Shown here: positions 52,843 through 64,000 of the stretch, in pieces
Position numbering within the stretch: the stretch's first letter is position 1
Layout: each line of letters opens with the position of its first letter
Source: Verrucomicrobiia bacterium
GTDB lineage: Bacteria; Verrucomicrobiota; Verrucomicrobiia; Limisphaerales; UBA1319
Direction: 5' to 3'
NCBI GenBank assembly: GCA_963664225.1
Contig: OY760937.1
Span: forward strand, 3,744,001-3,808,000
DNA: 64,000 nt
Position numbers and translations under genes: made by a program
The notes under the pieces: model-generated
Database searches by the model: none
Seen by the model: the letters and a program-made list of their open reading frames with translations, nothing else
Told to the model about the DNA's origin: nothing

Positions 52843-53374
52843 CCGATGCCTTGTTGCGGGTGACTTCTGAAAGTTGCCATATTCGCCTTTCACGCCGCCA
52901 ATCTAATCAGGCCAGCCCCACATTGCCTATTGCCACTTCGCCTGACGGATACAATTTAACCGAGTTACGCTCGGGTGAACTAGGCAGCGGGGGTGCAGAA
53001 GGTAAGGGACATCTTGGCCGCAAATCTAACTTCGGCCCAATCAAAAAGTCATCAAATTCCGGAAGACAAGGCGATCCGGGAAGGCTCGGCGTCCCCGGAT
53101 CGCCTGGGAGTCGCGGTTTCCAGGTTCTCGACCTAATCGCGAAGCCGGTAGAGGAGCTTCCACTTGACGCAAGGTGAAGGAATAGCATCCGTTGTAATCT
53201 ATACTCACCCATAACCCGCGCCGTAATCATGGCTTACTGGCCACATCTACGTAGCGGGTGCCCACCAACAGATAGAATGTCAGACCCTGCAGAGGGTGTT
53301 GATGGCGGCGTGGAGTAGAAACTTGCCCAGCCATCTGGAGGTATGGCACCTTTTCGTTTGTGCCAAGCGGATAA

Positions 53375-53566
53375 GTGGATCGCCATAGCGCTGTGGCGTT
53401 TAGTCCGGATAGCCGTTGGGTGGTCACAGGCAGCTACGACGATACCGCGCGCCTATGGGATTTGTGGGGCCACCGATCCAACCTATCCACCAACGAATGG
53501 AAGAATAATCTTCCCGGCCAGCCTTACTTCGAAGTGTTTCCCGGTCTGCCGATTCCAAGTAACTGA
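53375..53566 (+). pseudogene. C-terminal fragment of a WD40-repeat protein
   Basis: AVAFSPDSRWVVTGSYDDTARLWDL followed by NLSTNEW...LPGQPY. Confidence 0.7.
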
Positions 53567-53978
53567 GCCAACAGGAATCCGAAATCTCCAGCTTTGAATA
53601 TAGGAGTAACGGATCCACCTCTAATTTCGAAATCCAAAAGGGGTACATGCAGGATCGGATTAAGGCCATTGAGAAGGCCAGGGAGATCACTAGTCAATCC
53701 GGAGACCTGGACATCTGGATCCTTCGGGGCCATGCCCCAATCTCCTACGCTGCTCAATCTTAAGATTAGCGGCCTGGGAGTCGACGACTTGCGACTTCGA
53801 TTCCTTTTTCAAAGGGTCGGCGTCATCGGCTTTTACTGTTTTTTTCAGAGTTTTTTGAGGCCCTGGGTCCTGGGTGGTGCGGTCGACTCCGGTAGCGATG
53901 GGGCCGTGGGGTATCGGCTGAAATCGGGGCGGCAGCAGGAAATAAGCAACTCCTGACCTCGGAATTGAACGAATTCGC

Positions 53979-55367
53979 ATGTCGCATGTCGAATTACTGA
54001 CCAGGCGAAGTGTCGGGTCGTTCGGTCAAATCAGCCTCAATCAGAAAAAACATATGCTTAATCTTAATTACTGGAACCTCACTTACCGAGAACATACTAT
54101 CAATCTCCAACCAGGGAAAGCTGTTCAGGTGCTGCCTGGAGACGGATACATCGTGGATGACGCTCTGTTTCCCCAAGAAGCGCCAAGAGGGCCGTTTCGT
54201 CCGTCTCGTCCGGGAACAGCGAGTCTCGTTCCCTCGACCGAGGTTCCCAAACGGAATGATCTTCTGAGCTCCCAAATGGCCGTGTTTCAATCAACAACCG
54301 TAGAAGAAGAGGCCACAAATCTTTCTATAGCATTTTCGGCCAGATTTGGCATAGCGAGCGCCAAGGCTGCTTACGAAAGGGCCAGACTGGAGACGAGCTC
54401 AAAAATCATCTTTTATCTGCGAGCAGAGTCAACAAGTCCAGGAGATCAAATAGCTTCTGAGCAGATTCGTTGGAACACTCCACCCGAGGCCGAGGATATC
54501 TCAGATCCCGACCAGCGCATGAGGCAGTTTCTAGATGACTACGGTTCGCACTACGCAGTTCAGGTGTTTTACGGTCAATCCCTATACATTCGGGTTGCCT
54601 GCAACAGCCATATGCAGCAGGCACACGAGAAAATTTCTGCTGCAATAAACGCCGTTGGCTTGTTCTGGAGGGTTGGAGGCGAGTTTAGCAGAGAAGCGAG
54701 GGAGTTCTTTTCGAGTCAAGATTGCTCCATCGAAACCTCCCTCCTCGGCGGTGCTGTGAACCCATCGGGGGCGCTTTACGTCACGGGCATTGACCAGGTT
54801 CTGGACCTAGTCGATAAATTACGCAAAGGACAAGTGACTATTGACTCAGGCCCCTTACAGTGCAGAGTATGGTCCTACTGGCATACCTTAAAGGCTTTTC
54901 CGAAGTGTCGTGAACTATTTGATCGCTACACTCAACCGACGCCAGTCCCCACTCCATTCGGTGTGCCCAAGGGCACTGTTCTGATGTGGGCTCCAGATGA
55001 AGGTAACCTTCGTCGTGATAGTGCCTCGGGCGAAATCGTCGAGGTCATACCACCGGAGGGTTGGGTAAACCTAGATGGCAGCAAGGGCGGCAAGGATCTT
55101 ACGGATCGAGTCCCCATGGCAGTGGGCAAGTGGTCACGTTTATGGGAACAGGGGGGGCGGAAGGACATTCCTGACGATGGTGCTCATACTCCTTCCGGTT
55201 CGCTTCCTTGGGGAAAGGGAGCCCGAGATGGATATGGTTTCCAAGGGGAAGGCGATGAATGTATGTTGCTCAACATTTCATTCAACGGAAATCCCATCCC
55301 TGGACACAATCACGGCGGTGAGAACCGCCCACCTTATTTCGGATTGTTTTTCATAATGAAGTTGTAG
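53979..55367 (+). CDS. MACPF-like domain fused to a phage tail collar/microcystin-dependent-like C-terminal domain
   Basis: FLDDYGSHYAVQVFYG resembles the MACPF signature; VPKGTVLMW..PEGW..DG..DLTDR..ENRPPYFGLFFIMKL is tail-collar-like. Confidence 0.7.
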   Translation: MSHVELLTRRSVGSFGQISLNQKKHMLNLNYWNLTYREHTINLQPGKAVQVLPGDGYIVDDALFPQEAPRGPFRPSRPGTASLVPSTEVPKRNDLLSSQMAVFQSTTVEEEATNLSIAFSARFGIASAKAAYERARLETSSKIIFYLRAESTSPGDQIASEQIRWNTPPEAEDISDPDQRMRQFLDDYGSHYAVQVFYGQSLYIRVACNSHMQQAHEKISAAINAVGLFWRVGGEFSREAREFFSSQDCSIETSLLGGAVNPSGALYVTGIDQVLDLVDKLRKGQVTIDSGPLQCRVWSYWHTLKAFPKCRELFDRYTQPTPVPTPFGVPKGTVLMWAPDEGNLRRDSASGEIVEVIPPEGWVNLDGSKGGKDLTDRVPMAVGKWSRLWEQGGRKDIPDDGAHTPSGSLPWGKGARDGYGFQGEGDECMLLNISFNGNPIPGHNHGGENRPPYFGLFFIMKL

Positions 55368-55459
55368 GAAACACCAAACCCTCTCAACCGAAGTGACCAA
55401 CAACAGGGTACAGGGAAGTTGATGCTGTTGACCACCAAACACCATCCGAAACGGCCAGA

Positions 55460-55566
55460 CCTCCCAAGAAGTCAGTCTGGCTGGCCTATAATCGTCCCAT
55501 TTTGGTTTGCGGAAACAGCCGGGGAGGTGCCTCCCAAGAAGTCAGTCTGGCTGGCCTATAATCGTC
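55460..55566. repeat. Two 37-bp direct repeats separated by 33 bp
   Basis: cctcccaagaagtcagtctggctggcctataatcgtc at 55460 and 55530. Confidence 0.9.
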
Positions 55567-55961
55567 TGGTATGGTCCGCAAGAAACAGAGGATTGAAGGG
55601 CAGGGAAAAAGAATTCCTGCGGCAGCTTGGTGAATCTCGGGTGGCTCGGGTCTGGATGAATGAAGATTATCGGACAGATATATTTCAAGCTATAGCGTCG
55701 GCACAGACCTTTATCGAATCAGTGTTAACCTAATTAGGCTTTCGATGCCGATGGTTTATTATCGTTACGAGCATCGCTCGCAAGTTCATTCGACTTCCGG
55801 AGGTGGCCAAGCGCAACGGTGTGCTTAAGCATCGCATCTGATGTGACCCAGAGTTTTCTCGATTGATTGCTTAGTAATGGGCAGAAAGTCGCCGCCAGCC
55901 GTCCGAAACGTCCCCTACAACGAAGTGCGGGATGCTTTCGACTGGCTGGAGATCAAAATAA

Positions 55962-57446
55962 TCACGGCGTGACGTTCATACATCCGCCAATTTTGCAGTG
56001 ACGGCCACCCAGCGGAGATGGTTTCTTGGGGGGATCATCATCTGCTTTATCGATTGCTGCCCATAGGGAAAACCGGTCGGGGAACCGTCGTTGGTTGTGC
56101 CTGCCACGGAAGAAAGTTAGGCCGCGATTTGGGTCCCGAGTAGTCCAAAGCGGCGCAGAATTCATGTCGAGGTCGAATGACATACGGGCGGCACTACTGC
56201 CGATATCGGGCGTGATGAAGGGGGAGGCTCCTGTCACCTTGACGCGCTCGAAGCCTGCAAGGAAGTCCGTAAATGCGAGCAAGGCGGCGAGTGGATTGCG
56301 CTCGAAGTTCGACCAAAGCGCATCCCAGTCCAAGCTGTCGGCGGATAGGTGCACTTGCTCGTGGTGCTCCGCGATTGCAGCGGCGATATGCTTGACGTCC
56401 GGACGCTGCCTTTCAGACGGGGCCATGCAATTAAGAAACTCGTGGGCAGAGAATAGTGCGTGGAGTCTCCCCCAAGAACGGGTGCGGGGGTCCTGGTCAT
56501 TGCACCCTTCAAGATGCCAAAGAACCTCATAAGGGCTTTTCTGGGCCAGGAAGTCCTGCTGTGCCCTTATCATGGCCTGTTGTAGGTCTGATGGGAGGAG
56601 TATTCCGATTTCCGTAACTAGGTATCCCAGAATCTCAGCAAATTGTTCCCAGAATGCCGGCATAATTCGGTCAACCGCTTGACAGTGTCGAAATTCCCTT
56701 GCGGTCAGCAGGTACCATGTGGCTGTGTCATAACCGGCGTCATGCCAAAGCGCTATCGCAATCCATGCTCGCCTGAGCCAGACTTCCGGCTCGGTATCAA
56801 GCATTGGGCTGTCAAACCAGTCCGAATGCTGCGCCCGATACATTTCAGCCAGAGCCCCAAAGAGGGTGATCGGACGGCAAGAGCCCCGAGTCGCGCGGCT
56901 TCCGCAGACGGCGTCTCGTAGCCTTTTTTCGATTGGCATACCAAGGGCGACCTCTCCTATGAACAGGCAAATCAGGGTGTGAACCAAGTGGTCTCTATTC
57001 TCGTATGGGAAGAATTTTCGTCCGGCGAGGGCTTTTTCGAATTCCTTGCGCTCGTAGAAGGCACCGAGAAAATGCCGGATCCACTCGGGTGAAAGGCTGT
57101 GCCGAACGACAATCGGTCCGCACGGCTCCGCGTTGCTATCCATGTTCAGGCGAACAGCAGGGAGTGGGTAGTTGTGCTCAATGCAGAGACCTACAAGTTC
57201 CCTGAGCGGTGGTGAAAGTCTACCCCCGAGTATGGAAATAGTGCTATTTGAGAGATCTTTGAGGGGCTCGAGGTAGTTACCCCCTCTGCTTAGTGGCAGC
57301 GTAGAGATATGCCTCGCGAGGAGGTCTAATTTATCCTGCAGCCATAAATCGCCCATTGGTTTGCCGAAAGCGTTGGACCAAGACGTTTCATGGTTCCACG
57401 CCTCGTATGAAAAGTGGCTTAGGGTTCGTTCGATTTGAGTGCTCAT
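55962..57446 (-). CDS. HD-superfamily phosphohydrolase-like protein
   Basis: RDHLVH, ALWHDAGYD, LHALFSA, AIAEHH, NPLAALLAFTD. Confidence 0.7.
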   Translation of the reverse strand: MSTQIERTLSHFSYEAWNHETSWSNAFGKPMGDLWLQDKLDLLARHISTLPLSRGGNYLEPLKDLSNSTISILGGRLSPPLRELVGLCIEHNYPLPAVRLNMDSNAEPCGPIVVRHSLSPEWIRHFLGAFYERKEFEKALAGRKFFPYENRDHLVHTLICLFIGEVALGMPIEKRLRDAVCGSRATRGSCRPITLFGALAEMYRAQHSDWFDSPMLDTEPEVWLRRAWIAIALWHDAGYDTATWYLLTAREFRHCQAVDRIMPAFWEQFAEILGYLVTEIGILLPSDLQQAMIRAQQDFLAQKSPYEVLWHLEGCNDQDPRTRSWGRLHALFSAHEFLNCMAPSERQRPDVKHIAAAIAEHHEQVHLSADSLDWDALWSNFERNPLAALLAFTDFLAGFERVKVTGASPFITPDIGSSAARMSFDLDMNSAPLWTTRDPNRGLTFFRGRHNQRRFPDRFSLWAAIDKADDDPPKKPSPLGGRHCKIGGCMNVTP

Positions 57447-57450
57447 GAGC

Positions 57451-59010
57451 CTAGTCGTTCGCGAACATGCGTATAATTCTCATTAGCGCCTCGGACATTC
57501 CTGTGGAATGTTGGTCGGCAGCGATGATCTGGGCGAGGGTGCTCGACGATGTTGCATTTGGAGCAATGTCGGCGGCATGCACAAGGGTCTCTCGGTGGGG
57601 AAGGAAACAAACTCTATTCTTCAGCCGATTCCAATTTTGTCTAAAGAGGGCAGCGATTCTCGCGGGTGTCAATTCCGGAGAACGATCCATATAAGCAGCA
57701 ATTATTGGCGTATTTTCAAGGGCAGGAATCAGGAGCTCGGTGTTTTTTAGCAATGCCGCAGTGGTTGCCTCGCAAAAGTCCACCACCACGGCCAGACGAT
57801 CGCTGAGGCAAGCTTGGGTAAGCCAGGCTTCTTCAGTCGCTAAGGCGATGATATCGGGTGCCCGAGGCCTTAACACTACTGTCATGCAGCCGTTGAGTCT
57901 TATTGTGCTTAGAAAGATGTCGAGTGCAAGGTGAGCCATGCCAGGGGCGGTATCGAAAATCACGTGCGAGAATTTCTTCTCCGTAATGAGGTGCTTGGCA
58001 AGCGAACAAATCCGGCGCTGGTTTAACTCGCTCCGTTCCGCTCCCTGGGCTTGATCCAATTTCTGAATATCAGAGGAAATGATGGAACCTGGCACGAGGG
58101 TAAGGCGATCTTTCCAGGCGGGGTCTCCGTCGGAGATGGGCAGAAGCATTTCATCTGGGAACCATTTATAAGCTGAAGGAGACGTAAACCAGTTTACGAA
58201 TCGAACGGCCTTGCTCCTGCCAGGGCGGGTTGTGGGCAGGTAGAACTCCAGTGCGGGGCCTTCGTCGTCAGCGTCAACCAGGCAGACCTTATTATCGGGG
58301 CAGCGAGCCAAGTTAATAGCAAGCGCGATGGCAACGGTGGACTTTCCAACGCCGCCCTTACTTGAGTGAATGCTGATGACCCTCCCGTGCTGGATGCTTT
58401 CGTCGCTCAACCTGAAGGCCTCGTCAAGGGACGTCAGTTGGGCTAAATAGGCTGACGTACTTTTTACAATGGTCGTTAAGTTAGGTGTGAGATCATTTAG
58501 CTCAAGTCGGGCCTTGATGGCAGCATTGAGTGGGCGGCGCTGTTTGCTTGAGAGTTTTTCGAGGACAAAACCGAATACGGAGACACACTGTTCAACGATG
58601 CGCGGCGATGGCGATTGCACGCCTGATAAAAGTGATTCAAACGCGCGATCAACTAAGTCCCTCTCCTCAGCCGTCATTGGCCGTAGACACAGCGCGGCAT
58701 AAAGAAATTCACCGGCCTCTTTCACATATTTGCCTGCTGCGAAAAGCAGTCGACACTTTTCGGCGGACTCGGTTAAAAGGTCGGTATGCAGATTGTAGTT
58801 GGTAGCCAATCGGGCGAGCATGAAGTATTCCTCGCAACGGAGGTGCTGAGCTTTGAGGAACTTAGCAGATGGTTTGGATAATGAGGAGAAGCTAGAAAGA
58901 ACGCCAGCCCGATAGTGGTCTTTCAGGCGCTGTGAGATGGCGGATGGATCCTGCAGGGGCGTGCTGGTGTCCGGGTTGGGGTTGTTAGATGGAACATCTT
59001 TCGCTTTCAT
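57451..59010 (-). CDS. MinD/ParA-like P-loop ATPase with a helical N-terminal domain
   Basis: SIHSSKGGVGKST, LVDAD, IFDTAPG; ATG at 59010 overlaps the radical SAM stop (ATGA). Confidence 0.8.
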   Translation of the reverse strand: MKAKDVPSNNPNPDTSTPLQDPSAISQRLKDHYRAGVLSSFSSLSKPSAKFLKAQHLRCEEYFMLARLATNYNLHTDLLTESAEKCRLLFAAGKYVKEAGEFLYAALCLRPMTAEERDLVDRAFESLLSGVQSPSPRIVEQCVSVFGFVLEKLSSKQRRPLNAAIKARLELNDLTPNLTTIVKSTSAYLAQLTSLDEAFRLSDESIQHGRVISIHSSKGGVGKSTVAIALAINLARCPDNKVCLVDADDEGPALEFYLPTTRPGRSKAVRFVNWFTSPSAYKWFPDEMLLPISDGDPAWKDRLTLVPGSIISSDIQKLDQAQGAERSELNQRRICSLAKHLITEKKFSHVIFDTAPGMAHLALDIFLSTIRLNGCMTVVLRPRAPDIIALATEEAWLTQACLSDRLAVVVDFCEATTAALLKNTELLIPALENTPIIAAYMDRSPELTPARIAALFRQNWNRLKNRVCFLPHRETLVHAADIAPNATSSSTLAQIIAADQHSTGMSEALMRIIRMFAND

Positions 59011-60398
59011 CGGGCATATTCCTTTATTGGGAGTTGGCAGGAAGCGAGGATTTCCTCGCAGGCTTGTTGAAGGATGTGCCGGCCGCCGGGGAGTTTGGTG
59101 GCCTCGGAGATGTAAAGGTCTCGGGCCGCTTCTAGGTCGTAGTCGAGAGCCCTGGTGATGAACGACGGCCACTGGCGGTCCTCAGGGAAAGTGGATTTCC
59201 ATAGCCAACTTCCCATAAGGGGCATGATAATGTTGCCGTAGCAGAGGACGTCGGGCTTTGCGTGCAGTTCGCACGTTAGGGAGACGGTTTCGTCCAAGGA
59301 TGCCTCATCTTCGTCCAAGAGGCCCAGGACGAAGGAACATGAGACTTTGATGCCCGCAAGTACGAGGTCGTCAACAGCCTGAATTATCGCCCGGCGAGAA
59401 ATGAACTTGCCGTTGCAGCGGAGGATACGTTCGCTTCCCGATTCGATGCCGAGGAGGACGCTGTCCACGCCACAAGAAGCGAGCGCAAATGCGATTTCAT
59501 GTGTGATGTCCCTGGCGTCGGCGAAGACCATCATTTTGATGTCGTCGATGAGTCTCTCTTTGCGCTGATGACAGAACGCGTCCATCCAGGGACCGTCCAC
59601 CCATGTGTCACTAGTGTCGAGGATGTAATCCACGCCGAAGTTGTCCAGAAGGTAGCGGATTTCCTGCGCAACCGTTACGGGATCGCGGCTGCGGAAGCCC
59701 TTGTCCTGACGGGCGCAGAATGAGCAGCGCCGCTTGCAGCCGCGTTTTGAGAAAAGGTTGGCAGCCCGCTGGCCGGTCATGTTGATGAGGGTGTTGGTGC
59801 CGCGGTACTCCGCCAAGTATTGTTGAGGATCGATGCCGCCGAAATCGCGCGGGGGCATCTTCTGTTCCCAGACGTTTTCGAGGACCGTTTCCGTTCGAGC
59901 CAGGCCATGATTTGTCTTCAGGAGGAGATTTGGAACTTGGTGGAGGTCTATGGTTCCGTCAGCGAGCTGGCGCGACAGGGCCTGGAGGGTTGGTTGGCCA
60001 TCGCCGATGCACACCGCGTCAATAATGGGTTCCATCGCGAGCGAGGGGCCAGCCGCTGTGGCCGGTTGGCCGCCGACAATGACCAGCGTTCCTTGTTTTT
60101 TTGCTTGGGCCGCGATGGCAGCGAGCGATTTGGAGGAGAGCGCTGTGTAGGTAAGACCGAGAACATCTGCACCCGCTGCCGAAAGACGGTCGAGGAGTCG
60201 CGGCCCTAGGATGGTGCCATCCAGAATTTCGACGTCGCAGCGGGAGTCCACGGAGTCGGCGAGGAGGAGGAGATCGAGAGGCATGTTCCATTGGTCAGCG
60301 GCGATGCGGGCATCGTCAATGGGGCAGCGCGCGAGCACAATCTTCGGTTTCATAAACATGTCGTGGGCAAGGTTAACTACTAGGCGCTTTGCTTGCAA
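59007..60398 (-). CDS. B12-binding-domain radical SAM protein
   Basis: VIVGGQPAT, CIGDG, RGCKRRCSFC (CxxxCxxC), GIESGSERIL, SFVLGL. Confidence 0.9.
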   Translation of the reverse strand: MQAKRLVVNLAHDMFMKPKIVLARCPIDDARIAADQWNMPLDLLLLADSVDSRCDVEILDGTILGPRLLDRLSAAGADVLGLTYTALSSKSLAAIAAQAKKQGTLVIVGGQPATAAGPSLAMEPIIDAVCIGDGQPTLQALSRQLADGTIDLHQVPNLLLKTNHGLARTETVLENVWEQKMPPRDFGGIDPQQYLAEYRGTNTLINMTGQRAANLFSKRGCKRRCSFCARQDKGFRSRDPVTVAQEIRYLLDNFGVDYILDTSDTWVDGPWMDAFCHQRKERLIDDIKMMVFADARDITHEIAFALASCGVDSVLLGIESGSERILRCNGKFISRRAIIQAVDDLVLAGIKVSCSFVLGLLDEDEASLDETVSLTCELHAKPDVLCYGNIIMPLMGSWLWKSTFPEDRQWPSFITRALDYDLEAARDLYISEATKLPGGRHILQQACEEILASCQLPIKEYAR

Positions 60399-61720
60399 GA
60401 CTTAAGACGGACCCAGAGGGAGCCGGCGAGAAGAGTGAGGAGAACAACCGGCAGCGAAATCACAGAGATGCTAGGCTCGGCTTTGGCCAAAATCGTCACA
60501 AGAATAACTGACACGAGTCCAAGGACGAGACTCCAAAGGACGACTTTTGGATGGAGACGCCAGAGCAATCCGCCGAGCAGGATTGGGAAAAGGCCGACGC
60601 TCATTCCAGCGAGCGCAAAGGCGACTTTAAGGACATCTTTAAACAGCCACCCCGAGATAGCGGCAAGTGTGACTGACGCGATGACGATGCTTGCTGATAT
60701 ACGCCTTGTCGTGCGTTCATTCCTGATTTCGAGAATGTTGAGGACCACCGTTGGCGCGATGACGAACAGCGCTGTATCCGCCGTGGAGAGGATTGCAGAA
60801 AGGAGGAGAAGCATTCCAAGGCCCTGACAGGCTCTCGGTAAGAGGCTTTGGAATACTTTGACTAGAGCGTCCTCTGGGTTGAGGCCGGGGAAGTGGGCAT
60901 AGGCGGCGAATCCGATCCCTGCGAGGATTACGCCAACGAAAGGCAGCGTTATGCCGGCGACGAGTAGGCCGCCGCGGACCGCACGCGTGTCTCTGGCAGC
61001 AAAGCAACGTTGCCAAAGTTCCGGGGCGGAGAAAATGCCCATGCTGCCGATAATCAGGAATCCAACGACATCGGCGCCGGATTTGGAGAGATCCGAGTGC
61101 GCAAGGACGGTCTTCGCGTTAGCCGGGGATATCAGTTTAGGCAGTAGGAAGACGAGGATGAAGAGGATTAGGACCCACTGAAAGATGTCGGTCGTAATCG
61201 AGGCGCGGAAGCCACCCGTGATGGTATATGACAGGAGGAAGAAAGCGATTATGAAGATGCAGGTGATGTAGGAAAGTCCGCTTAATCCCTGGAGGATGGT
61301 GGCACCCAAAATGAATTGGATGAGCAGCAGGGAGACATAAAAGATGACGTTGTAGAACGAGACGAGTTTGGCGGCTGGCTTGCCGTAGTGACGCTCAAAG
61401 TAATCGGACATGCCAAAGTAGCCATTGTCTCTGGCCTCGCGCTGTAAGCGGGCGGTGAAGACGGAGAAGAGGATGAACCCCAGAACAATTCCGATAAACA
61501 GCGAGATTGCAGGCCAACCGTATTTGTAAACGAAGCCGGTGTAGGTTACGAGAATGAAACCATCAAAGAAGCCGGCCGCGATAGAACAGCCTAGGCCCAA
61601 TGGGCCGACCTTCCGGTCAGCAATCAGATACCAATTGAACCCCTTACCCTTGGAGGCGAGGTACCCGAGGATAACCAAGAATATGGCGTAAGGTATTAGG
61701 AGTGCGAAGTTAGTGTCCAT
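60380..61720 (-). CDS. Sodium:solute symporter family protein
   Basis: About 12-13 TMs, YLIADR, YTITGGFRASITTD, WQRCFAAR, SAILSTADT. Confidence 0.9.
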   Translation of the reverse strand: MDTNFALLIPYAIFLVILGYLASKGKGFNWYLIADRKVGPLGLGCSIAAGFFDGFILVTYTGFVYKYGWPAISLFIGIVLGFILFSVFTARLQREARDNGYFGMSDYFERHYGKPAAKLVSFYNVIFYVSLLLIQFILGATILQGLSGLSYITCIFIIAFFLLSYTITGGFRASITTDIFQWVLILFILVFLLPKLISPANAKTVLAHSDLSKSGADVVGFLIIGSMGIFSAPELWQRCFAARDTRAVRGGLLVAGITLPFVGVILAGIGFAAYAHFPGLNPEDALVKVFQSLLPRACQGLGMLLLLSAILSTADTALFVIAPTVVLNILEIRNERTTRRISASIVIASVTLAAISGWLFKDVLKVAFALAGMSVGLFPILLGGLLWRLHPKVVLWSLVLGLVSVILVTILAKAEPSISVISLPVVLLTLLAGSLWVRLKSCKQSA

Positions 61721-61945
61721 GGGAGTATCCTTAATTTGTAAACGAAGCCGGTTTAGGTTACGAGAATGAAACCATCAAAGAAGCCGACCGCGATAGAACA
61801 GCCTAGGCCCAATGGGCCGACCTTTCGGTCAGCAATCAGATACCAATTGAACCCCTTACCCTTGGAGGCGAGGTACCCGAGGATAACCAAAAATATGGCG
61901 TAAGGTATTAGGAGTGCGAAGTTAGTGTCCATGGGAGTATCCTTA
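61522..61945. repeat. 212-bp tandem duplication of the symporter 5' end; the upstream copy is truncated
   Basis: 61522-61733 versus 61734-61945, four substitutions seen, one changing TAC to TAA. Confidence 0.93.
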
Positions 61946-61953
61946 GAGTGCTA

Positions 61954-64000
61954 TCAAACGTACTTAAGGCGATCGGCGATTTCGGCCATGTTGTAGGGGC
62001 GCTTGTCGGGGTTGTTATCGAGACATTGCTCGATGAGGTTCTTCATCGGGTTGCTGGTGACGTACTTGATGAGGTCGGGATCCGGTTTGCCTTCGAGCAT
62101 GAAGAGGCAGAGCTTTCCAAAGGAGAAGATGTCAGCGGCAGGAGCGGCCTGGACGCCAGCAACTTGCTCTGGGGATGAGTAATGGGGGGTGTGGGCACCC
62201 TGGAGGGTTACTGCGGTGATGGGGCGGCCAAGGTATTTAGAGATTCCGAAATCGCCGATTTTCCACACTTTGTTCACTCGGAGTATGTTCTGAGGTTTGA
62301 GGTCACGGTGAACGATTTGGGCTTCGTGGATGCTTTGAAGGGTCTTGGCGAGGCCAATGGTGATGGCTTTGGTCTCGAGGATGTCGAGTTTGCCGGAGGC
62401 TTGCTTAGTGACGAAGTCGTGGAGGTTTCCGCCATCAGCGTACTCCAAGACGAGGTACTGCTTGTCGCCCTCGCGGACGAAATCACAGACGGCCAGGACA
62501 TTGTCCTTGTAAGCCAGTTTCTGGAGGATTTCCAGCTCACGCCGAAACTGGGCTTCGAGCTGTGGGCTGCCGGTGGAAACGAGCACCTTGACGGCGTAAG
62601 TCTTGCCGTCTTCGAGGCTCACTGCCCGGTAAACGGTGCCGGATGCGCCATCACCGAGCTTTTCTTCGAGACGGTACTTGCCGTCGAATGATTGGACAGC
62701 AGGCTTGGGTACCGGTTTGGCCGCGACGGCCTTGTCTCCGGCCTTCTCGTAGAAAGGGGTGATTCTCGCCTGGATGTAAGGTTCGAAGTGGTTGCTGCGT
62801 ACCAGGGCGGTGTGTGGGGCCTGGTTGAGGATCATCTGGCGGGCGATGTCGCGCTCCGATTTGTCCACCAGGCCGAGGTTCTCGGACATTACTTTGGCGT
62901 CCTCGCCTTCGAGTTGGAGGGCGATCTTAGTCCCGACCATGTCGAAGACCACTCGGTCGAAGTCCTTGACGCTTTGGGAGGCGAGAAGAATGCCGACGCC
63001 GTATTTACGTGCTTCCCGGATGAGCTCCGTGAGCGTCTCTTCGTAAGAAAGCTTGTGGGCTTCGTCCACAACGGCGAAAACGCGCATGGCCTGCGTGGGA
63101 CCTTTGGCGAGCATGTCAGCGTAGATCTTCTGGAGGACGAAGCGGCTGACTGCGACCATTAGCTCGGGCGTGGCCAAGTTAGAAAGGCGTAGAACGTGGG
63201 TCTCTTTCAGTATCGCTTCGAATCCATGGGGATCGGGGCCATCGAGGAAGATGCCGGTTTCAAAAAGGGGCTGAACACGGAGGTTGAGATTGCGGACATT
63301 ACCGCCGACTGTGGCCTCCATCTGCTTGAGGATGTTCCATACTGACGAGAAGCTCGGAGGCGGCAGTTGCCAGGTTTCCGGCTTGTTGGGTGCGAAGCCG
63401 GCGACGGCGAACGCCTGGCTGATGGCATCGCGTAGAATGGCGTGCTGAATGTCGCCGAGCCCGAAGATCTTTGCGAGGCTATTGGCAACCTGGTAAACAA
63501 CCTTTAGGTAGGTCTGCTTCTTGCCAGTGTGCGGGTCAACGGGGAGTTCAAGCGGATTAACGTGGATGCCGTTGGCGGCGTCGAGTTCTTTGGCGTTGGC
63601 GCAATCGAGGAAGGACTTTCCGTCGGCGTTTGCAAGCTTGCCGGAAATGTACTCGCCTTGGAAGTCGAAGATGATGGAAGGCACTTTGGCCTTGGCGAGC
63701 TCCCAGAGAAAAGAGCTGGTGGTCTGGGTTTTGCCGGCGCCGCTCTTGCCAACGATTAAGATGTGCTGATTCGTAAGCTTCTTGGGTGCTATGGCTGTGG
63801 GATCCCAGAAGATGGGCTTGCCGGTTTCCGAGTTGATGCCGATGCGCAGGCGGAGTTGGCCCGATTCCGGCGGCGGTTGCGGCGTAGTCCTAGACTTGGC
63901 TTCCGGCTTTAGTGGGGTCGGGTACACAAATGGCGAAGGGGCCGGTTCGGCGATTTGAGCGGGCGGCTCATTCTTCGACGACTCCGCAATGGTGCCCAGG
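61954..64000 (-). CDS. HerA/FtsK-type ATPase (DptH/DndH-like) fused to a C-terminal Ser/Thr kinase; 5' end beyond the window
   Basis: NQHILIVGKSGAGKTQ, IFDFQG, VVDEAH, REARKYG, LASQ; kinase GDGASG, AVK, HRDLKPQN, DFG; frame stays open to 64000. Confidence 0.85.
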   Translation of the reverse strand, partial: LGTIAESSKNEPPAQIAEPAPSPFVYPTPLKPEAKSRTTPQPPPESGQLRLRIGINSETGKPIFWDPTAIAPKKLTNQHILIVGKSGAGKTQTTSSFLWELAKAKVPSIIFDFQGEYISGKLANADGKSFLDCANAKELDAANGIHVNPLELPVDPHTGKKQTYLKVVYQVANSLAKIFGLGDIQHAILRDAISQAFAVAGFAPNKPETWQLPPPSFSSVWNILKQMEATVGGNVRNLNLRVQPLFETGIFLDGPDPHGFEAILKETHVLRLSNLATPELMVAVSRFVLQKIYADMLAKGPTQAMRVFAVVDEAHKLSYEETLTELIREARKYGVGILLASQSVKDFDRVVFDMVGTKIALQLEGEDAKVMSENLGLVDKSERDIARQMILNQAPHTALVRSNHFEPYIQARITPFYEKAGDKAVAAKPVPKPAVQSFDGKYRLEEKLGDGASGTVYRAVSLEDGKTYAVKVLVSTGSPQLEAQFRRELEILQKLAYKDNVLAVCDFVREGDKQYLVLEYADGGNLHDFVTKQASGKLDILETKAITIGLAKTLQSIHEAQIVHRDLKPQNILRVNKVWKIGDFGISKYLGRPITAVTLQGAHTPHYSSPEQVAGVQAAPAADIFSFGKLCLFMLEGKPDPDLIKYVTSNPMKNLIEQCLDNNPDKRPYNMAEIADRLKYV

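Follow-up and report, generated by a model that had tools for sequence, protein, structure and literature searches.

This analysis concerns a gene cassette near the end of a 64,000-nucleotide (nt) stretch from a Verrucomicrobiia bacterium (GenBank assembly GCA_963664225.1, contig OY760937.1, positions 3,744,001 to 3,808,000), which we call the window and by which we mean the whole stretch that was analyzed. Its minus strand carries five open reading frames (ORFs), located at 55962-57446, 57451-59172, 59007-60398, 60380-61720, and from 61954 to beyond the window end, of which the second and third are given as longest frames and not as adopted gene starts. In the direction of transcription, the first is the 3' part (681 codons, 61954..64000) of a gene for an ATPase-kinase fusion, the last gene of a MADS/Dpt-like defense operon. 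It is followed by the genes for a sodium:solute symporter (SSS) family membrane protein of 446 amino acids (aa) (60380..61720), a cobalamin-binding radical S-adenosylmethionine (SAM) enzyme of the class B type with Radical_SAM and B12-binding domains (450 aa, 59007..60359), a ParA/MinD/Mrp-type ATPase with a helical N-terminal domain (519 aa, 57451..59010), and an orphan protein with a predicted HD/phosphodiesterase (PDE) fold, a C-terminal beta domain, and a Cys-containing tail (494 aa, 55962..57446). Very probably, these five genes are two modules placed end to end, namely the tail of the defense operon and a separate cassette of four genes that opens with the symporter and closes with the HD-like protein.

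An earlier note on this DNA had described five co-oriented genes here. All five are present, and its domain assignments hold as well, including the HD call, which had been made by eye. The junctions inside the cassette are short. The TGA stop codon of the radical SAM gene and the ATG of the ATPase gene at 59010 overlap as ATGA (59007-59010), which sets the ATPase at 519 aa from position 59010, in agreement with its database entry, and a 4-nt spacer (57447-57450) separates the ATPase stop from the ATG of the HD-like gene. Both features had been pointed out before and can be read directly in the sequence. The symporter and radical SAM genes, which had been left as either overlapping or adjacent, are adjacent: 20 nt lie between the symporter stop and the radical SAM ATG at 60359, so overlap drops out. 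Judging from its homologs and from the database gene call (450 aa), the enzyme most likely starts at this ATG or at a second ATG at 60353 (448 aa), 20-26 nt past the symporter stop. A start at TTG 60398, which would overlap the symporter, was rejected because it only opens the longest frame, whereas the homologs begin at MKPK.

Between the ATPase-kinase stop codon (61954-61956) and the symporter ATG (61720) lie 233 nt. This apparent gap is a tandem duplication of the symporter 5' end and no ordinary spacer. Positions 61522-61733 and 61734-61945 are head-to-tail copies of 212 nt each that are 98% identical, and the copy boundary (61733/61734) is found 13 nt upstream of the symporter ATG. The upstream copy (61734..61945, minus strand) includes the ribosome-binding region and has its own ATG at 61932, from which the symporter frame runs through its first 59 codons until an in-frame TAA takes the place of Tyr60 of the intact gene; it matches symporter residues 1-66 at 97% (tblastn). 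With the duplication removed, the symporter ATG would sit 21 nt past the stop of the defense gene. No further copy of the duplicated 212 nt is found in the genome. An 80-nt contig spans the copy junction in runs X1 and X3 (from two studies), with only 30 letters on one side, one fewer than the bridging criterion asks for, and these two runs may be the assembly's own source. In contigs of runs X4 and X5, a 451-nt stretch (window 61283-61733) is identical to the symporter 5' end and lies between differing flanks. One of its ends coincides with the duplication boundary, its contig depth is much higher (145.7 and 29), and it may stem from a recombination tract or from a closely related cassette in a different setting.

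The separate standing of the cassette becomes clear from related loci, three of which (L003-L005) came from a metagenome scan and two (L007 and L008) from alignment of the radical SAM enzyme. The metagenome contig L003 reproduces the window's arrangement of symporter, radical SAM, ATPase, and HD-like genes in both order and orientation; the genes around them are glycosidase- and esterase-like, and none is a defense gene. L004 carries the ATPase and HD-like genes and a convergent radical SAM gene, right after which the contig ends. In L005, the ATPase and HD-like genes are followed by genes for a polyprenyl synthetase and a major facilitator superfamily (MFS) transporter, with TraG-/VirB11-like genes upstream and no radical SAM gene; here the ATPase is longer (636 aa) and the HD-like gene is split by an opposite-strand Mutator-family (IS256-like) transposase gene (L005:6282-9233). 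The L008 radical SAM gene (43% identical at the protein level) is convergent with an operon encoding a SAM methyltransferase, a ParA-like ATPase, and an orthologous symporter, and the locus shows neither an HD-like gene nor defense genes nearby. A 498-aa ORF upstream of the L008 radical SAM gene was considered as a diverged HD protein and rejected as a spurious Arg/Pro-rich frame. The L007 contig starts inside the radical SAM gene (53% identical) and continues with genes for Vsr, Dcm, and NgoFVII. Three more contigs (40,267, 16,584, and 64,100 nt) each appear to carry HD-like, ATPase, and radical SAM homologs, as judged from equal longest-contig values, and the 64,100-nt contig is probably L003 itself because its ATPase is identical to that of L003.

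Among the loci compared, no fifth conserved gene was found. Between the window and L003, the radical SAM enzymes are 69% and the symporters 72% identical, compared with 38% for the ATPases and 44% for the HD-like proteins, so that the cassette consists of a slow pair and a fast pair of genes; the symporter orthologs of the window and L008 share 31% identity. The earlier note had accepted that it would be mistaken if the symporter-radical SAM and MinD-HD pairs never co-occurred elsewhere, and both pairs occur in L003. Its view of a single system tied to the ATPase-kinase fares worse, as the cassette is found without MADS/Dpt genes in L003 (all four genes) and in L008 (no HD-like gene).

We consider it highly improbable that all five genes form one system in which the cassette would serve the MADS/Dpt-like operon as an accessory and, for example, supply or remove a DNA or protein mark. 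Cassette and operon do share a strand and would be only 21 nt apart without the duplication. There is also no convincing terminator between the defense gene and the symporter (the scan gave 7 sites against 6.1 expected, which is chance level, and the promoter scan was at chance level too), which makes cotranscription likely here, and the cassette is probably transcribed with the defense operon in this genome. Nonetheless, no MADS/Dpt genes accompany the cassette in L003 and L008 or the parts of it present in L004 and L005, and the contigs of runs X4 and X5 carry the 451-nt symporter 5' stretch with different upstream sequence. Moreover, MADS, which an excerpt of PMC13662399 describes as an eight-gene operon (mad1-mad8), is reported there in about 0.3% of genomes, whereas the HD-like family was found in none of the 185,579 species genomes scanned (0 of 47 candidate stretches were confirmed). 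One system is contradicted as a general rule by L003, L008, and this rarity of the family. Comparison of the loci suggests that the shared transcription is probably an accident of insertion with no functional tie.

The same rarity is seen elsewhere. For the HD-like family, a word-indexed search of 5.8 billion clusters returned 6 homologs and a full profile search of 1.84 billion returned 23 representative clusters. No HD-like protein was found in 60 related genomes or in the plasmid, phage, and IMG/VR collections, and the radical SAM relatives in IMG/VR are only 26-27% identical. Nor was an HD-like gene found in the five metagenome-assembled genomes that hold L007-L011, although these genomes are incomplete and absence is not shown by them. 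In a limited full-text collection, we found nothing on a B12 radical SAM enzyme combined with an HD domain and a solute symporter or a defense island. The cassette is a very rare, uncharacterized, and horizontally moving set of four genes from known superfamilies.

The radical SAM enzyme scores above cut-off for both PF04055 (67.7 bits, E 1.8e-18) and PF02310 (37.1 bits, E 3.2e-9), and the cysteines of its CxxxCxxC motif (C208, C212, and C215) are invariant in 35 homologs. It combines the cluster motif, the radical SAM core, and an N-terminal B12-binding domain, as expected from a cobalamin-dependent (class B) radical SAM enzyme. At the sequence level its ortholog group is sharply bounded, comprising 43 clusters (the window's own included) at E <=1.6e-35, with the next match at 1.7e-15 and 25% identity. 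Among solved structures, MgmA comes closest (9CCB, E 2.5e-23; the M. marburgensis enzyme according to PMC11796369), followed by OxsB (E 7.4e-10) and then by an apramycin-pathway enzyme, TsrM, and TokK. The top NCBIfam matches are MgmA (TIGR04014), the C-methyltransferase of ribosomally synthesized and post-translationally modified peptides (TIGR03975), and HpnJ. All of these score far under their cut-offs, and with 59.7 bits against the 360 bits needed for the TIGR04014 equivalog, the enzyme falls outside the MgmA family proper. As far as such comparisons reach, its type is closest to C-methyltransferases.

The symporter is a member of PF00474 (80.9 bits against a cut-off of 22.8, E 1.2e-22, residues 31-398) and also matches TIGR00813 (E 3e-30). 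The PanF, PutP, and ActP equivalog models score far below their cut-offs, and the substrate is therefore left unassigned. In a comparison with the PDB sequences, no match was obtained at E <=0.01.

The ATPase scores above cut-off for PF10609 (E 1.9e-10), PF13614, and PF01656. Its motifs KGGVGKS (the deviant Walker A) and DADDEGP and the Walker B residue D353 are invariant in 7 sequences, and both motifs and fold place it among the ParA/MinD/Mrp deviant Walker A ATPases. It falls short of the KGGVGR-variant model NF047398 (47.9 against a cut-off of 90). In the AlphaFold model (pLDDT 79), residues 22-200 contain nine helices, ahead of a generic ParA/FlhG/MinD/Soj fold; the Foldseek matches are ParA, FlhG, MinD, and Soj, with E values no better than 1.6e-6. 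For the N-terminal helical-repeat domain of about 200 aa, the ESM Atlas gave scores of at most 0.80 and only hints of HEAT repeats. PADLOC produced one weak match that is confined to the P-loop (PDC-M28B, E 5.9e-6). Since C243 is the only invariant Cys, a role as Fe-S carrier or a NifH-like role seems unlikely.

The HD-like protein has no match in Pfam (the Pfam HD models included), NCBIfam, or PADLOC. Invariant in 19 sequences are D152, H153, and H156, H235 and D236, H329, H361, H362, and E363, and D394. Its AlphaFold model (pLDDT 82.6, pTM 0.87) found nothing in the PDB with Foldseek at E <=1e-3. The VIA-align list, on the other hand, is made up mostly of HD/PDE proteins by title, with Z scores of 5.3-8.4 (best 8.4), where values under 8 are modest for helical proteins. 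It includes HD hydrolases, class I PDEs, SidE-type PDE domains, the HD-type domain of PPX/GppA, HD-GYP, Cas3-HD, and SAMHD1. The family profile gave a single, chance-level match among the PDB sequences (E 0.29), and no solved HD protein was matched. In the ESM Atlas the protein falls in unnamed clusters, in one of which 16% of the members carry PF01966. The HD/PDE fold was assigned because the VIA-align list is consistent and the ligand motifs are present. On the modeled structure, the protein has the H...HD...D ligands and the all-alpha HD fold of the HD metal-phosphohydrolase superfamily, which makes this its predicted activity. A complex prediction of the ATPase with HD-like residues 1-470, run without controls, scored 0.00, a value that speaks neither for nor against a contact between them.

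The strongest clue to what the cassette does comes from the partners of the radical SAM enzyme across its wider family. Uptake-type transporters stand beside it in 8 of the 12 loci examined, these being the loci whose enzyme is at least 29% identical. In the window, L003, and L008 the partner is an SSS symporter. In L009, L013, L021, and L029 it is a Liv-type ATP-binding cassette (ABC) importer consisting of a binding protein, two permeases, and two ATPases, and in L010 it is a NitT/TauT-type ABC importer consisting of a binding protein, a permease, and an ATPase. The contigs of L004 and L007 break off on the side that matters, and in L011 and L012 no transporter was seen beside the radical SAM gene. 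The five loci with an ABC importer form a sister clade of the enzyme (29-34% identical), which, from its gene neighborhoods, has the look of a separate, uncharacterized radical pathway coupled to uptake. Three of these loci (L009, L010, and L029) also encode another radical SAM protein, which in L009 and L029 has a SPASM domain. Since ABC systems that depend on a binding protein work as importers, and members of the enzyme family are encoded beside them, we take the family to act on a small solute that is brought into the cell. The window cassette may then be read as an SSS-fed version of the family with an added ATPase/HD module.

Starting from what is observed, namely gene content, module independence, rarity, folds, and importer linkage, the reading that we put forward is that the cassette carries out an import-coupled radical modification of a small solute, and we see about as much reason to accept it as to doubt it. 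The SSS symporter would take in a small polar solute, and the MgmA-like cobalamin radical SAM enzyme would methylate or otherwise rearrange this solute at an unactivated carbon. The ATPase and the HD/PDE-fold hydrolase would be a fast-evolving accessory module that might hydrolyze a phosphate ester on the substrate or product, or might act on the transporter in the manner of ArsA. Import of a precursor followed by its modification had already been suggested in the earlier note, and the importer linkage supports that part; the defensive purpose attached to it is not borne out, as the same linkage points more to metabolism.

The kinship with MgmA invites another explanation, in which the enzyme is a protein modifier that C-methylates one of its cassette partners (symporter, ATPase, or HD-like protein), making the cassette a self-contained membrane machine. 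Its best solved and best NCBIfam relatives, MgmA and TIGR03975, are indeed protein or peptide C-methyltransferases, and the enzyme and the symporter are conserved together at about 70% while the other two genes drift. Even so, we regard this explanation as very unlikely: the family scores lie far below their cut-offs, the loci share no conserved small ORF resembling a precursor peptide, and the sister-clade enzymes are encoded in complete ABC importer operons, which are more easily explained by a small-molecule substrate.

The neighboring defense operon continues beyond the window, as had been anticipated from the part of the locus that is visible, and was placed at L001:7955-20000 and L082:1303-3078. 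In the whole genome, the ATPase-kinase gene encodes 1996 aa (L001:7955-13945). The fusion consists of a MAD8-like N-terminus (residues 32-225, NCBIfam MAD8 E 6.6e-32), a middle part of about 1100 residues without family assignment, a DndH/HerA-type ATPase (residues 1348-1663, PADLOC DndH E 6.4e-44), and a MAD6-like Ser/Thr kinase (residues 1742-1994, PADLOC mad6 E 1.1e-49), so that a HerA/TrwB-type ATPase is followed by a kinase domain (Pfam Pkinase E 5e-45 to 8e-44). Directly upstream, on the same strand and with spacers of 3-9 nt, are encoded a 903-aa fusion of a MAD2 methyltransferase and a MAD5 specificity protein (E 3.3e-186), a 542-aa MAD7 homolog (E 8.8e-116) with weak similarity to SspG, and a 591-aa DndF/SspF-like protein (E 1.1e-21). 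The expectation of dptF/G-like and methylation genes in the next window has thus come true. All NCBIfam scores for MADS lie under the curated cut-offs (MAD2, 620 against 720; MAD7, 388 against 410; MAD8, 111 against 175; MAD6, 94 against 460; MAD5, 113 against 400), and the models of the OLD-like ATPase-nuclease pair MAD3/MAD4 matched none of the four operon proteins scanned. For these reasons we call the operon a MADS/Dpt-like hybrid and not a member of MADS.

Farther upstream (L082:3640-16815) are IS4 transposase fragments, unassigned ORFs of 416, 212, and 448 aa, a type I HsdR (1056 aa) beside which no HsdM or HsdS was seen, and an unassigned 554-aa ORF adjoining an antiphage-type HerA (588 aa). 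Within the window, positions 30335-52842 encode a TraG/TraD-like coupling protein, a TrwC relaxase, ParA, an N6/N4 DNA methylase, and the anti-restriction protein ArdC, as well as IS66 (TnpB and transposase), two DUF4143/AAA_14 ATPases (one of them truncated), a cyclophilin-like protein, and two proteins of 960 and 402 aa without family. On the plus strand, four ORFs at 53343-55733 (84, 120, 462, and 104 aa) are oriented convergently to the cassette; neither Pfam nor NCBIfam matched any of them, and the related loci contain no counterpart. Judged by its gene content, the setting is a defense island on or beside a conjugative element.

Critically speaking, several points weigh against import-coupled modification of a small solute. 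A small-molecule pathway would not ordinarily include an ATPase of the ParA/MinD type, and MgmA, the closest solved relative of the radical SAM enzyme, modifies a protein and not a small molecule. The argument from importers comes in part from a sister clade that is only 29-34% identical, and only a handful of loci were inspected. Furthermore, the cassette lies in a defense island on or beside a conjugative element, a restriction-modification system follows the radical SAM gene in L007, and a type IIG enzyme is encoded near that of L010. Patchy and mobile, with a fast ATPase/HD pair, the cassette also fits a defense system.

These last points lead to the explanation that the cassette is a new chemical anti-phage defense. 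In it, the radical SAM enzyme and the HD hydrolase would make a modified nucleoside or nucleotide, in the manner of oxetanocin or viperin, the ParA-like ATPase would act as sensor or regulator, and the symporter would supply a precursor or move the product. The cassette adjoins the MADS/Dpt-like operon, with the type I HsdR, the antiphage HerA, and the conjugative element near. Restriction-modification genes are found beside or near the radical SAM gene in L007 and L010, L005 has a conjugative context, and the distribution is patchy and very rare. OxsB is the second-best solved match, and among the structures similar to the HD fold (Z 5-8) are nucleotide hydrolases, PDEs, Cas3-HD, and SAMHD1. 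We nonetheless find this explanation unlikely. The comparison with viperin and other defense systems drawn in the earlier note finds little backing in PADLOC, whose defense models (viperin and others) matched the radical SAM enzyme, the symporter, and the HD-like protein in 0 families and the ATPase only through its weak P-loop match. Its analogy with OxsB/OxsA is likewise weak, as MgmA is by far the closer relative (E 2.5e-23 against 7.4e-10), the enzyme has 448-450 aa against the 744 aa of the OxsB chain, and the HD-like protein lacks a sequence match to any solved HD protein. No defense genes lie near the cassettes of L003 and L008, the enzyme family is found inside ABC importer operons in five sister-clade loci, and the phage, plasmid, and viral collections yielded no HD-like relatives, the IMG/VR radical SAM enzymes being as distant as noted above. 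A bolder version, in which an imported nucleoside-like precursor is turned into an antiviral nucleotide analog under control of the ParA-like ATPase, as chemical immunity within the defense island and with an oxetanocin-like logic that evolved independently, would be distinctly unlikely.

Cobalamin radical SAM enzymes perform some of the hardest carbon chemistry known, and most of their subfamilies have no assigned substrate. Here, a small and bounded group of them is defined together with fixed partners, i.e., a transporter, a ParA-like ATPase, and an orphan HD-fold family without a Pfam model. The repeated occurrence of the wider clade in solute-uptake operons offers a concrete route to the substrate. 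The locus also illustrates that tightly spaced, co-oriented genes beside a defense operon need not belong to that operon. New cobalamin radical chemistry on an identifiable solute would be highly interesting, as would chemical defense, and if the cassette did turn out to be defensive, it would represent a new type of chemical defense.

Finally, the cassette can be set beside known systems. With MgmA, the glutamine C-methyltransferase of methyl-coenzyme M reductase, the radical SAM enzyme shares its compact size (about 450 aa) and its domain layout, in which the cobalamin-binding domain is N-terminal and precedes the radical SAM core; it differs in having a bacterial host and no methyl-coenzyme M reductase context, its neighbors being the symporter, the ATPase, and the HD-like protein. 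A feature in common with OxsB/OxsA is the presence, within one small mobile cluster, of a cobalamin radical SAM enzyme and a metal hydrolase of the HD fold. The extra N-terminal domain of OxsB is not found here, and OxsB is matched only over short stretches. Set against OxsA, a small HD phosphohydrolase, the HD-like protein has the HD/PDE fold and the metal-ligand motifs, lacks a sequence match to solved HD proteins, and counts 494 aa, with extra N- and C-terminal domains. To our knowledge, the Oxs cluster contains neither a symporter nor a ParA-like ATPase, whereas the cassette has both.

The ATPase also recalls ArsA/ArsB, the pairing of a SIMIBI-class ATPase with a secondary transporter: a deviant Walker A ATPase is encoded with a secondary transporter in four of the five ATPase loci (an SSS symporter in the window, L003, and L008, an MFS transporter in L005, the L004 contig ending after the radical SAM gene) and has a weak P-loop match to ArsA_ATPase (E 1.4e-5). 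It has a single ATPase domain with a helical N-terminal domain, whereas ArsA is duplicated, and it lacks conserved metal-binding cysteines. This likeness suggests an ArsA-like link of the ATPase to the transporter, a coupling that we infer from analogy alone. As for the neighboring operon, its proteins match the MAD2, MAD5, MAD6, MAD7, MAD8, DndF/SspF, SspG, and DndH models and thereby resemble both MADS and DptFGH/SspFGH. It differs from MADS in its fused genes (MAD2 with MAD5, and MAD8 with a DndH-like ATPase and a kinase) and in having a DndF/SspF-like protein and a DndH-like ATPase instead of MAD3/MAD4, and the four genes of the cassette beside it are foreign to MADS and Dpt modules alike.

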